Source: Heterodontus francisci
Lineage: Eukaryota
Direction: 5' to 3'
DNA length: 64,000 nt
NCBI RefSeq assembly: GCF_036365525.1
Contig: NC_090382.1
Location: forward strand, 111,448,372 to 111,512,371
Part shown: positions 28,093 to 34,874 of the stretch, in pieces
Numbering within the stretch: position 1 is the first letter of the stretch
Layout: every line of letters begins with the position of its first letter
Notes under the pieces: model-generated
Seen by the model: only the letters and a program-made list of their open reading frames with translations
The model's database searches: none
What the model was told of the DNA's origin: nothing
Program-made: the position numbers and the translations under genes

Positions 28093-28412
28093 AGAGAGAG
28101 AGAGAGAGATACAGCACTGAAACAGGCCCTTCGGCCCACTGAGTCTGTGCCGACCAACAACCACCCATTTATACTAATCCCTCATTAATCCCATATTCCC
28201 TACCACCTACCTATACTAGGGGCAATTTACAATGGCCTATTTACCTATCAACTTGTAAGTCTTTGGCTGTGGGACGAAGCCAGAGCATCTGGTGGAAACC
28301 CATGTGGTCACAGGGAGAACTTGCAAACGCCACACAGGCAGTACCCAGATCCAAACCCAGGTCGCTGAAGCTTTGAGGCTGCAGTGCTAACCACTGCGCC
28401 ATTGTGCCGCCC
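28093..28412 (-). mobile_element. tRNA-derived SINE (HE1/V-SINE-like) with (TC)n tail
   Basis: Homologous to 5536-5896; abuts the LTR at 28415. Confidence 0.85.
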
Positions 28413-28822
28413 TATGCTATATGGTCAGTGTGATGTTAGCATTAAATGAGGATAGTAGAGTTTGGGTCAAAGTAACAGGAGTTTATTTACAGGGGTCTTC
28501 TTACTAGGGTATCTACATGAACACTGAGCAGCACGAGGTTCAGACTCGTGGCATCATATCATTTGATGATGCTTATGTTCATTAAACATAATCTACCCAG
28601 CAACAGCTTATGTCCATTATACTACATCTCCCCCAAGTCTCTGACTTCATTCATCAGGTTTGTAATACTGCAACGTTCTCACGACTCTGCCATAGTGTGT
28701 GAGTGGAACTATTGGATGACGAATGTTCACTATTTTCACTGTCATCTGGGTGATCTGTTGTTGGTTGTATCACAAATTCATCGATTCTCTCTGGTAGCTG
28801 ATTCTCTCGATCTTTCATTAAT

Positions 28823-29381
28823 TCTTCTGGACGGTATTATCCCTTTGCAAGATGGAGGAGTACCATAACCGTCCCTTTCACGTGAGGGAGGTCCTCTTGA
28901 GCCACTTTCTTTTTCACCATACCTCCACTTTACGTTGGCCTCGAAGGAAGGGGCCTTTTAGGTGGTGGTACATTCCTCTTCAGATAGTACTTTTTTTTTC
29001 TCTCCTGAATGCACTCACCAAGACTACCTTTTTGAAGGGGACCACTCATTCCTCCTCAAATCCTCCTAGGCGCACCGTGGCTTCTTGGGGGGTGGGGGGG
29101 TGAAGGTAGTCTACGTCACCTACTATTTTCAAATGCTGGTATAGTAGCTTGGGTTTTCCATCCAAAGGCTTCCCATTCATAACCCATGCTGCATCTCCCA
29201 CATCCCCTTGACTTTCATTGGTAACAAAAGCAAAAGTCCTTGACTTATTTGTTTCGCAATCCTCCATCAGCTGGACTTCTACTATTCTTCCCTATATGTC
29301 AAACACCACTTCAAGTGCCTTTTCATTTGTTTCAGTATTCAGACCACCAATGAAACGTTTTCTGGGATGATCTACTTCCAC
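28823..29381 (-). pseudogene. RBMX: Processed RBMX (hnRNP G) retrocopy: RRM plus P/R/G-rich region, inside the LTR element
   Basis: Minus strand reads [121 protein letters not shown], colinear with the RBMX N-terminus; stops, frameshifts, no introns. Confidence 0.9.
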
Positions 29382-29872
29382 CCTGCATAACTTCTGTAAG
29401 TCTAGGTAAGCTTTCTGACCGAGTATTGAACAGGCTTGGTTCTGAATAACATATAGGGTTTCTAGAATGGTGCTGTTTCTGTTTGTTAAGGTTGTCTGTA
29501 TTTCTCCAACAACCTTCAACTGAATCATTCCTGGACCATATAATTTTTTGTTGGTTTTCCTATGCCTTTCCTTCCTCTGCCAAGGTGTTTGGTCAGATAG
29601 GCTAGAAAGCACTGCTCCTGTATCTAATTTGAAATTTGTTTTATTTTCTAAGATTTCTGCTTCCCAGCAATCTTATTTTTTTTGTCCTTGCCCTTCTCCT
29701 AGGAAGAGACGATTAATTGCTTGTCCCACCTTTATTTCCTCTATCTTTTTACCAGCACTGCAGCATTTGTTTTCTGCTGCGACAGTCCTGCTGAAAGTGC
29801 CCCCTTCTCTTGCACCAGAAACATTCAGCTTCCTGGGCTGAGCAATTTTCCCACTGGTGCCATTCCCGAACA

Positions 29873-32800
29873 CATATAGAACACAGAACATAGAACAGTA
29901 CAGCACAGTACAGGCCCTTCGGCCCACGATGTTGTGCCGAACATTTAACCTACTCTAAGATCAAACTAACTACCTACGCTTCATTCCACTATCATCCATG
30001 TGCCTATCCAAGAGTTGCTTAAATGCCCCTAATGTATCTGCTTCTACTACCACCGCTGGCAGCGCATTCCACGCACCCACCACTCTCTTTGTAAAGAACC
30101 TACCTCTGACATCTCCCCGAAACCTTCCTCCAATCACCTTAAAATTATGCCCCCTGGTGATAGCCCTTTCCACCCTGGGAAAAAAATCTCTGGCTATCCA
30201 CTCTATCTATGCCTCTCATCATCTTGTACCCCTCTATCAAGTCACCTCTCATCCTTCTTCGCTCCAATGCGAAAAGCCCTAGCTCCCTCAATCTTTCTTT
30301 GTAGGACATGCCCTCAAGTCCAGGCAGCATCCTGGTAAATCTCCTCTGCACCCTCTCTAAAGCTTCCACATCCTTCCTATAATGAGGCGACCAGAACTGA
30401 ACACAATATTCCAAGTGTGGTCAAACCAGGGCATTATAGAGCTGCAGCATAACCTTGCGGCTCTTAAACTCAATCCCCCTGTTAATGAAAGCCAAAAGAC
30501 CATACACCTTCTTAACAACCCTATCAACTTGGGTGGCAACTTTGAGCGATCTATGGACATGGACCCCAAGATCCCTCTGTTCCTCCACACTACCAGGAAT
30601 CCTGTCTTTAAGCCTGTATTCCGCATTCAAATTCGACCTTCCAAAATGAATCACTTCACACTTTTCCAGGCTGAACTTCATCTTCCACTTCTCAGCCCAG
30701 CTCTGCATCCTGTCAATGGCCCGTTGCAACCTACAACAGCCTTCCACACTATCCACAACTCCAGCAACCTTCGTGTCATCGGCAAACTTGCTAACCCAGC
30801 CTTCCACTTCCTCATCCAAGTCATTTATAAAAATCACAAAGAGCAGAGGTCCCAGAACAGATCCTTGTGGAACACCACTGGTCACCGAGCTCCATGCTGA
30901 ATACTTTCCATCTACTACCAACCTCTGACTTCTATGGGCGAGCCAATTTTGTATCCAGACAGCCAACTTTCCCTGAATCCCATGCCTCCTTACTTTCTGA
31001 ATGAGCCTACCATGGGGAACCTTATCAAACGCCTTGCTAAAATCCATATACACCACATTCACTGCTCTTCCTTCATCAATGTGTTTTGTCACATCTTCAA
31101 AGAATTCAATAAGGCTTGTGAGGCATGACCTGCCCCTTACAAAGCCATGCTGACTGTCTCTTATCAAACCATGCTTTTCCAAATAATCATAAATCCTGTC
31201 TCTCAGAATCCTCTCCAATAATTTGCCCACTACCGACATAAGACTGACTGGTCCATATTTCCCAGGGTTATCCCTATTCCCTTTCTTGAACAAGGGAACA
31301 ACATTTGCCACCCTCCAATCATCCAGCACTACTCCAGTGGACAGTGAAGATGCAAAGATCATCGCCAAAAGCGCAGCAATTGCTTCCCTCGCTTCCCGTA
31401 ATATCCTTGGGTATATCCTGTCTGGCCCCGGGGACTTATCTGTCCTCATATCATTCAAAATTTCCAGCACATCCTCCCTCTTAACCTCAACCTGTTCGAG
31501 CATATCAGCCTGTTCCACGCTGTCCTCACAAACGACCAGGTCCCTCTCACTACTGAATACTGAAGCAAAGTATTCATTTAGGACCTCCCCTACCTCCTCC
31601 AACTCCAGGCACAAGTTCCCTCCACTATTCCTGATCGGCCCTACCCTCACTCTGGCCATCCTCTTGTTCCTCACATAAGTGTAGAATGCCTTGGGATTTT
31701 CCATAATCCTACCCGCCAAGACTTATTCATGTCCCCTTCTAGCTCTCCTCAGTCCATTCTTCAATTCCTTCCTGGCTACCTTGTAACCCTCTGGAGCCCT
31801 GTCTGATCCTTGCTTCCTCAACCTTAAGTAAGCTTCCTTCTTCCTCTTGTCATCCAAGGTTCCTTCACCCTGCCATCCCTTCCCTGCCTCATCGGGACAA
31901 ACCTATCCAGCAGTCGCAGCAAGTGCTCCCTAAACAACCTCCACATTTCTGTCGTGCATTTCCCTGAGAACATCTGTTCCCAATTTATGCTTCCCAGTCC
32001 CTGCCTAATAGCATTGTAATTCCCCCTCCCCCAATTAAATATTTTCCCATCCCGTCTGCTGTTGTCCCTCTCCATGACTATAGTAAAGGTCAGGGAGTTG
32101 TGATCACTATCACCGAAATGCTCTCCCACCAAGAGATCTGCCACCTGGCCTGGTTCGTTGCCAAGCACCAAATCCAACATAGCCTCCCCTCCAGTCGGCC
32201 TATCTACATATTGAGTCAGGAAACCTTCCTGGACACACCTGACAAAAACTGCTCCATCCAAACTATTTGCACTATGGAGGTTCCAATCAATATTAGGGAA
32301 GTTGAAGTCACCCATGACAACAACCCTGTTACTTTTGCACCTTTCCAAAATCTGCCTCCCAATCTGTTCCTCCATGTCTCTGTTGCTATTGGGGGGTCTA
32401 TAGAAAACTCCTCACAAAGTGACTGCTCCTTTCCTGTTTCTGACTTCCACCCATAATGACTCAGTAGACAAACCCTCCTCGACGACCTCCCTTTCTGCAG
32501 CTGTGATACTATCCCTGATTAGCAATGCCACTCCCCCACCTCTTTTACCTCCCTCCCTATTCCCTTTGAGACATCTCAACCCTGGAACATCCAACATCCA
32601 TTCCTGCCCCTGTGATATCCACGACTCTGTAATGGCCACAACATCGTAGCTCCAATTACTGATCCATGCTTTAAGTTCATCACCCTTATTCCTGACACTT
32701 CTTGCGTTAAAATAGACACACTTCAATCCATCATACTGGCTGCAACTTTGCCCTGTCAACTGTCTATCCTTCCTCACAGACTCTCTGCACTCGGTATCCG

Positions 32801-33780
32801 CCTGTTCAACAGCTACCCCATCCACTGATCTGTAGCTCCGGTTCCCATCCCCCTGCCAAACCAGTTTAAACCCTCCCGAAGAGCTCTAGAAAAACCTCCC
32901 GCCCAGGATATTGGTGCCCCCACCCCCCCCCCCCCCGCCCCAGTTCAGATGCAACCCGTCCTTCTTGTACGGGTCCCACCTTCCCCAGAAGGTATCGCAA
33001 TGATCTACATATCTGAATCCCTCCCTCCTGCACCAGTTCTGTAGCCACGTGTTCAGCTGCATTCGCTCCCTGTTTATAGCCTCACTAGCACGTGGCACCA
33101 GTAACAATCCTGAGAATACTACACTGCTAGTCCTGCCTTTCAGCTTCCAACCTAACTCCCTGTATTCACTTTTCAGGTCCTCATCCCTTTTTCTGGCTAT
33201 GTCATTGGTACCGATATGTACCACGACATCTGGCTGCTCCCCCTCCCCTTTAAGAATCCTGTAGACTCGATCCGAGACATCCCTGACCCTGGCACCCGGG
33301 AGGCAACATACCAGCCGGGAGTCTCGTTCGCGACCACAGAATCTCCTGTCTGTTCCTCTAACCACTGAATCTCCTATCACTATCGCTCTCCTATTCTCCC
33401 CCCTTCCCTTCTGAGCCACTGGGCCAGGCTCAGTGCCAGAGACCTGGCCAATGTGGCTTTCCCCTGGTAGGTCGTCCCCCTCAACTGTATCCAAAATGGT
33501 ATTTTTATTATTGAGGGGACGGCCACAGGGGATCCCTGCACTGTGCGTCTATTCCCTTTCCCTCCCCTGACGGTCACCCAGCTACCTTTATCCTGTAACT
33601 TAGATGTCATTACTTCCCTATAACTGCTCTCTATCACCCCCTCAGCATCCTGAATGATCCGAAGTTCATCCAGCTCCAGCTCCAGTTCCCTAATGCGGTC
33701 TGCGAGGAGCTGGAGTTGGGTGCACTTCTCACAGGTGAAGTCAGCAGGGACACCAGTGGTGACCCTCACCTCCCACCTCA
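29873..33780 (-). mobile_element. Near-full-length CR1 (HER1-like) LINE: ORF1 zinc finger/coiled coil/SGNH esterase, ORF2 APE-RT
   Basis: ORF1 CEKC..LELELDEL and IVIGDSVVR..CLPGA..VHIGTND..DGLHLN (32886-33781); APE YFNARS, ITESW, MGDFN, SDH (31824-32825); RT QHGF, YMDFSKAFD, GVPQGSVLGP, FADD (30421-31719); TTCT(A/G)TG-type repeat tail. Confidence 0.95.
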
Positions 33781-34874
33781 CACCTTCTGCAATTCAGTGT
33801 TGCTGCCTGTAGGTGTCTTCCCTGCCTCTTGGGCTTTCTGGTGCCATTACTCTCTGCCTTCTCAATGGACTCAACTGATTCCAGAATTTTTGAGGCTGGA
33901 CCGCCCCCGAACACCCCAAACTAGTGGTTGATGAAACTTTCATTCCTCTGCCTGCCTGCTCAATAAAATAGCTTTTCTCAAAGTCAGATCTTCTTTTGGC
34001 TGAACCTGATCTGTCATCTATAACCCTGACTACTATTTTGTCCCAAATCAGTTTGTCTCACATACTCCCGTAGTTGCAGTCCTCAGCTACTTTTTACAGG
34101 TCATTAATAAATGAATCGATACTTGCACCAGCTTTTTGGGTTCACTTGCTGAACTTATTCCTTTCCACGATTATATTCTTCCTCATCTGAAAGTATTCCT
34201 CCAATGTTTAAATCACTTTGCCATATGGGGTTTCTTTTTTGTCGATCCCCAGGGTAGTCAGAATGTCATCCGCACTGTCTCCCATGTCATAAAGCAAAAC
34301 ACTGACCTGTTCTTGGTCCGGTTGTGCTGTTAAACCCGATGGGGAATGGTACCTGTCGAATCTTTGAATCCATCTAGACTGCGCTTCAGCCTGGTCGGGC
34401 CCCACCACTTGCTTAAAGCTCTCTGGTAAAGGTAGAGACTTTGACATATTTGTTATCTCTTCTGTTTTCTTATGCTGCAAAAGTCTTTTTTTTTTGCCGC
34501 TGCCACCATGAATTATATTGTCAGTGTGATATTAGTATTAAATGAGGATTGTAGAATTTGGGTCAAAGTAACAGGAATTTATTTGCAGGGGTCTTCTCAC
34601 TAAGTTATCTACTTGAACACTGAGTAGCACGGCTTAAGGTCTACGTACATAATCTACCCAGCAACAAGTTATGTCCAGGAACATCTCCATCTGCAAGGGT
34701 AAGTTGAATGATAGCTCCTGGTTTACACTGTTGTGTATTTGCCTTATTATTCTGATTACTGGGAGCTAAGTGGAGTTTCTGGAACAAAAGTGTAAACAGG
34801 AGACAAGAATTGCCCTGGGAAAGCTGATTTCTAAAAGCAGCAGTAGTTTATCATTTATCATTTGTGAGGATAAA

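Follow-up and report, generated by a model that had tools for sequence, protein, structure and literature searches.

Here we describe a family of non-autonomous Gypsy elements in the 6.0-Gb genome of Heterodontus francisci in which an intronless copy of the host gene RBMX has replaced, in frame, the reverse transcriptase (RT), RNase H and integrase core of the element, as shown by the junctions, the loss of introns and the reading frame. The elements have the layout LTR-gag-protease-RBMX-pol tail-LTR, are ~2.45 kb long and were retrieved from at least 106 distinct loci. Taken as a whole, the data are best explained, and in our judgment with good confidence, by capture of an RBMX mRNA, amplification of the chimera in trans and constraint on the captured RRM, although the parts of this account differ in strength and are weighed separately below.

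The window copy and its family

The window (the whole 64,000-nt stretch that was analysed) contains a decayed RBMX-bearing Gypsy copy that runs from 34683 to 28415 on the minus strand, with its parts in the order 5' LTR, PBS, gag, protease, RBMX, pol end, polypurine tract (PPT) and 3' LTR, all on that strand. The two LTRs (34509..34683 and 28415..28626) have TG...CA ends and a K2P distance of 0.15, with ~38 nt missing from within the 5' LTR. The PBS (34497..34508) is complementary to the 3' end of tRNA-Leu(TAG), and genomic tRNA-Leu(tag) genes terminate in the matching sequence. The 5' part of gag (33778..34447, ATG at 34447) was matched in tblastn by residues 3-194 of P0181 and carries stops and one frameshift; the 3' part, with the CCHC zinc knuckle (29681..29869; P0181 residues 218-255), gave weak Pfam zf-CCHC matches below the cut-off. 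The aspartic protease (FKLDTGA; approximately 29385..29680) is in frame with RBMX and was matched by P0181, and has no Pfam match of its own. It is followed by the 5' switch point GGTGGAAG (29375..29382), common to pol and to codons 2-3 of host RBMX, by the RBMX piece (28823..29381; one stop and several indels), by a C-terminal pol tail (28635..28822) that lacks ~57 nt in this copy, and by the PPT (28627..28634). Separately, a tandem array of ~80 units of 3050 bp occupies 18.727-19.004 Mb of C34 (L206), and the single unit scanned holds tRNA-Leu(TAG) and tRNA-Ile(AAT).

The initial annotation, made from the sequence of the window, had placed the paired LTRs, PBS, PPT, gag, protease and RBMX at these positions and had called the copy pseudogenised; both readings stand. 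The short tail that it described as leading to the PPT is also present, and is in fact the C-terminal end of pol. Its statement that the copy has no RT or integrase core needs qualification. P0181, an intact single-ORF Gypsy polyprotein with Pfam RT, RNase H and integrase domains that was found by profile search, matches the window at residues 3-194 and 218-386 only, that is, in gag and protease, so the element lacks an RT, RNase H and integrase core of its own; an RT does lie within the coordinates, in a CR1 LINE that was inserted later on the same strand (29870..33777, borders approximate; Pfam esterase ORF1, endonuclease and RT). This LINE, which goes unmentioned in the initial annotation and makes up ~3.9 kb of the 6.3 kb, splits the first zinc knuckle of gag; it occurs in the window copy alone and is foreign to the family, and its borders were set from the uninterrupted copies L002 and L005, which join across the insertion site. 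The CR1 is near full-length; its ORF1 encodes a GDSL/SGNH esterase, and its RT is open over 433 aa. No recognisable target duplication flanks the window copy, possibly on account of a SINE-like repeat (labelled by eye) with a CT run at its end that lies on the minus strand directly behind the 3' LTR (~28100-28413).

The best protein matches of the window insert are shark and ray RBMX, and among solved structures the protease-RRM frame is best matched by the RBMX RRM (2mks, E 3.5e-27). Host RBMX is located on C15, a chromosome other than that of the window, and its exons have ~90-100% protein identity to catshark and smooth-hound RBMX. Its introns of 294, 2391, 749, 913 and 83 nt are missing from the element copies. 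The insert matches the host exons end to end, skipping the introns of 294, 2391, 749 and 83 nt, and consists of coding exons 1-3, the 5' part of an alternative exon, a deletion join and parts of the next two exons; four splice joins are crossed in the common form of the element and five in copy L168. The captured isoform carries the 105-nt alternative exon, which is also found in smooth-hound isoform P0003. From this exon to the next, 102 nt are deleted in frame at AATG(T/G)AC (join at 28954..28979) throughout the family. At codon 26 the host gene (L051/L052) encodes Ser today, and Ala is found in four other chondrichthyan proteins and in 77 of 81 element copies, so the change to Ser in the host postdates capture. 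Four clustered RRM-like protein matches at 197.67-197.91 Mb of C3 (L133-L136; 52-57% identity) were dropped as family members for want of any DNA match to RBMX or the element, and probably represent another RRM gene or its duplicates.

Across the genome, element parts accompany RBMX at all 106 loci (protease in 95, tail in 100, LTR in 96), and RT or RNase H at none (0/106), as the initial annotation had proposed in describing a non-autonomous element with spliced RBMX in place of its RT, RNase H and integrase. Where both LTRs are present (31 copies), the median length is 2435 bp. The best 40 of 135 candidates in a genome DNA search all matched, comprising the window itself and 39 others at 76-81%. 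Allowing up to two mismatches, the deletion-join motif had 70 genome matches compared with 0 for a reversed control, so this internal junction is not a product of chance; the motif recovers 22 of the first 30 copies, and the join itself is present in 95 of the 96 copies having both flanks. An integrase match in L027 was rejected, as it is not collinear with the pol-bearing family by DNA. Identical junction matches occur at C11:30018048 and C318:28524, the latter perhaps an unplaced duplicate of the former.

Target duplications are 5 bp long; among copies whose ends could be scored, 8 of 13 chimeras and 3 of 3 pol copies match at 4 or 5 of the 5 bases. Because such duplications flank most scorable copies, the RBMX chimeras represent separate integrations. 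Median K2P distances between LTRs were 0.138 in chimeras (n = 31) and 0.143 in pol copies (n = 5). Every copy examined is old, and the majority are broken: the closest pair of chimeras has a p-distance of 0.09, identity to host RBMX is at most 92%, and no young or intact master was seen among the chimeras examined. Two strongly supported pairs with long shared branches, L130 with L140 and L030 with L101, may be late master copies or segmental duplicates. The most basal copy contains an insertion starting with TG (L180:3370-4500), possibly another LTR element.

The pol-bearing relatives were found by a search with LTR plus tail, which retrieved 30 loci, 9 with RBMX and 21 without, and all 21 of the latter run on upstream into pol. 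These copies are ~4.5 kb long, have the same LTRs as the chimeras and show the domain order RVT_1, RT_RNaseH, Integrase_H2C2, rve (L083/L084). Based on 218 genome matches to an integrase-tail motif that recovers 14 of 16 known pol copies, there are roughly 250 of them in the genome. The single ORF and tRNA-Leu PBS would fit the Mag lineage of Gypsy.

Junctions, relic copies and the proposed capture

Immediately behind the protease, pol reads GGTGGAAG followed by AGATC, and host RBMX reads GGTGGAAG followed by CAGATC. The chimeras track pol through the shared 8 bases and the host beyond them, with Val-Glu in the same frame. This 8-base sequence is exact in 10 of 16 pol copies, and the chance of a random join sharing at least 8 nt is 0.00023. 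The microhomology at the junction and the in-frame protease-RBMX fusion that had been postulated from the window are thus both present.

Two relics retain longer forms of the insert. L129 extends through the RBMX stop and ~100 nt of 3' UTR and then enters pol at GAGGT..AGGAC, with a gap; it is the sole copy with this long 3' form. L168 has the full alternative exon, neither of the two shared deletions and a longer pol piece, its 3' join having been removed by an insertion, and is sister to host RBMX in the tree (support 99/95). These relics indicate that the first capture would have reached from codon 2 into the 3' UTR and been trimmed later, within trees that are weakly resolved. Between the joins, the pol sequence has been substituted rather than duplicated. 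No poly(A) was present at any 3' join read, and L129 leaves the 3' UTR well before the downstream AATAAA.

The 3' joins of the short forms fall into at least four types (A, 22 copies; B, 1; C, 31; D, 15), with 18 copies ambiguous or other and 19 unscored; L130 joins pol further up, at a point of its own. Type A is concentrated near the root of the tree (3 label changes compared with 13.9 after shuffling), and the junction-side letters of types C and D match those of one helper subfamily. In the gag-protease tree, 13 pol copies are interleaved with 60 chimeras, giving 10 label changes, of which at least 4 are forced by strong branches; this tree and the RBMX tree both have low resolution, with bootstraps that did not settle. 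K2P distances between LTRs were 0.167 for type A (n = 5), 0.16 for type C (n = 8) and 0.137 for type D (n = 7), so copies of the basal type are not younger. From these patterns we infer a single capture, probably followed by trimming and by repeated switching with co-packaged helper RNA. The two template switches of the initial annotation are consistent with the original joins, and additional deletions and recombinations were required to reach the short form seen in the window.

Several smaller features were also examined. Recurrent 1-nt indels, each in 5-8 copies and spread across junction classes, look like slippage. An excess of G-to-A changes on one branch, suggestive of an editing burst, was not significant (5 of 30 shared changes, p = 0.18), and a seeming 1-nt offset of protease relative to gag in the chimeras was an alignment artefact at an A-run.

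The following sequence of events would account for these observations. A single-ORF Gypsy element would have co-packaged a spliced RBMX mRNA of the alternative-exon isoform, and at GAGGT..AGGAC its RT would have left the end of pol for the RBMX 3' UTR, to return at GGTGGAAG, just behind the protease. As a result, an in-frame RBMX from codon 2 to its stop would take the place of RT, RNase H and the integrase core. The product would have retained its LTRs, PBS, PPT and gag-protease and been copied in trans by the pol-bearing sister family, as suggested by the 5-bp duplications, the same LTRs and the same age. Over many rounds it would have lost 102 and 18 nt in frame and most of the 3' half of RBMX, and exchanged its gag-protease and 3' join with helper subfamilies, as seen in the junction classes and trees.

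Reading frame, selection and rival explanations

A single frame runs through gag, protease and RBMX, with no stops common to the copies. Common stops in the gag or protease frame were absent from 42 chimeras, compared with 16/16 and 5/5 in the other frames, and the modal spacings of 183 and 251 nt in chimeras equal those in pol copies. The RRM frame is still open in 15 of 82 copies. Among the best 120 of 181 and the best 150 of 3365 database matches, no protease-RRM fusion protein was evident, and a protein search with the protease part alone gave nothing at E 1e-5 among 74 candidates. Three proteins taken up as possible fusions (P0172, P0260 and P0266) proved on inspection not to be. As evidence against fusions elsewhere, these protein matches carry little weight.

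Selection on RBMX was assessed from variant counts in 82 copies, with 24 of the 106 loci excluded for insertions or short coverage, codons 111-118 skipped and CpG-decay alleles removed. Rare variants, which mostly arose after insertion, were neutral, with a ratio of replacement to silent changes (N/S) of 3.4 in the RRM against 3.45 possible, and rare replacements were equally dense per possible change in the RRM and the RG-rich part (0.92 and 0.95). Changes separating 63 derived from 19 basal copies were taken as made during replication. These lineage changes were 2N:7S in the RRM (p = 0.0006 against neutral) and 13N:5S in the RG-rich part (p = 0.52), with p = 0.037 between the two, and a stricter cut-off gave 0:4 and 10:4, respectively. 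The RRM signal amounts to 9 changes, and the domain boundary was chosen after a first look at the variants. For the gag-protease region, both alleles of common variants were present in pol copies at 60 of 75 positions (raw counts 23/26 in protease and 37 + 8 = 45/49 in gag), so the third-position bias there was possibly inherited from helpers. The in-frame deletions are weak evidence of constraint, because 308 of 494 short repeats in the captured coding sequence are spaced in frame.

On balance, the substitution counts favour, by a narrow margin, selection on the RRM during replication of the family. The masters most likely made a Gag-protease-RBMX polyprotein in which purifying selection acted on the RRM and the RG part was drifting, to judge from the same counts and at a similar level of confidence. 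What the RRM did can be guessed at: it might have bound the element's own RNA for packaging or export. More tentatively, and again from sequence comparison, the RRM, taken from a splicing factor of the host, may have been a working accessory domain that let the chimera's own RNA outcompete that of the full-length helper in packaging or export, yielding >100 copies next to ~250 with pol.

It is also quite possible, if short of an even chance, that RBMX was a pure passenger, its frame a product of microhomology and the RRM signal either small-number noise or the outcome of repeated copying of the RRM portion from host mRNA. RRM changes are few, the signal weakens to p = 0.03 when variants are defined by a frequency threshold (4N:5S), and the whole RBMX piece shows no significant departure (27N:14S, p = 0.20); moreover, short repeats favour in-frame joins, the family recombines often, and the pol tail is out of frame after the most frequent 3' joins. 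A passenger does not readily account for the deficit of replacements in the RRM, which appears without any use of silent changes (2 of 15 replacements, p = 0.006) while the density of rare replacements is the same in the two parts. Re-copying from host mRNA fits poorly with derived copies that depart from today's host where basal copies agree with it, and with basal-type copies that are not younger.

Selection could instead have acted at the level of the host, with one or a few masters serving as RBMX-like host retrogenes that also shed copies. This would suit a constraint limited to the folded RNA-binding domain, and LTR-captured genes can become host genes, as PMC13317346 describes for Bs1. 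We consider it improbable, given the lack of any young or intact master among the chimeras, the distances between copies and to the host, and a gag-protease that kept swapping with helper subfamilies, as expected of RNA cycling through particles. Least probable by far is a LINE-made RBMX processed pseudogene inside a Gypsy copy that lost pol before or after, the composite then being amplified. LINEs are abundant in this genome, and a CR1 lies within the window copy itself, but both original joins show microsimilarity with pol, the long form exits the 3' UTR without reaching its AATAAA, and pol between the joins is replaced. Neither mark of a processed pseudogene, poly(A) or a target duplication of its own inside a continuous target, was found at the joins read, and none of the 21 RBMX-free loci lacked pol. 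We retain capture by template switching, with amplification in trans, as the likeliest account of the family.

Comparison with known captures

Most known cases of LTR-mediated gene capture in animals are young retrocopies that occupy one site or a few. The mechanism, LTR-mediated retroposition, is a known one; what is new here is how far one capture spread, that its intermediates survive and that the captured RRM seems constrained. One capture has given rise to a dispersed family with intermediates, whose later history of trimming, helper recombination and domain-by-domain selection can be read. If the RRM constraint is real, this would be a case of reverse domestication, in which a transposon put a retained host domain to its own use. 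The family also demonstrates a route to >100 RBMX-like pseudogenes that does not involve LINE machinery, a point relevant to the annotation of shark genomes. Like the shark element, acutely transforming retroviruses carry host coding sequence in place of pol, in frame with gag, and depend on a helper. Gag-onc retroviruses, however, are infectious, env-bearing and selected on cell growth, whereas the shark element is an env-less Gypsy of the germ line. Our search of the literature, which did not extend to Repbase or Dfam, where an entry may exist, found no report of an RBMX-carrying family or of shark RBMX retrocopies.

The LTR-mediated retrocopies described in the main text of Tan et al. 2016 (PMC5131818) share their mechanism with the shark family, which agrees with them in every feature examined: part of a spliced mRNA stands in place of a stretch of the element ORF, both LTRs are kept and poly(A) is absent; further rounds as a non-autonomous element were also proposed there. 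That text reports nine fly retrocopies with 18 insertion sites, attributes 5 of 7 young zebrafish retrocopies to LTR elements, and gives a median microsimilarity of 6 bp at the joins of metazoan LTR retrocopies, compared with 8 bp here; the word 'RBMX' has 0 occurrences in it. Unlike the cases it presents, the shark family combines one capture with at least 106 loci, nested subfamilies, relic intermediates, repeated helper recombination and an in-frame Gag-protease fusion. HERV-K FAM8A1, as cited in PMC5131818, likewise involves a vertebrate LTR element, a captured spliced mRNA and microsimilarity at the joins; it differs in being a retrovirus and in being described as a processed pseudogene that is not transcribed.

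Among captured hybrid ORFs the nearest parallel, described in PMC13317346, is Bs1 of maize, an LTR element with transduced host coding sequence in a hybrid ORF. A title cited in that article reports non-random mutation of the captured fragment. Bs1 is a plant element with three gene fragments, none of them full length, and is described as a transcribed and translated host gene. The shark family, in contrast, took up one vertebrate gene, at first with nearly its whole coding sequence, and its constraint apparently acted during replication of the element, with no surviving intact gene seen.
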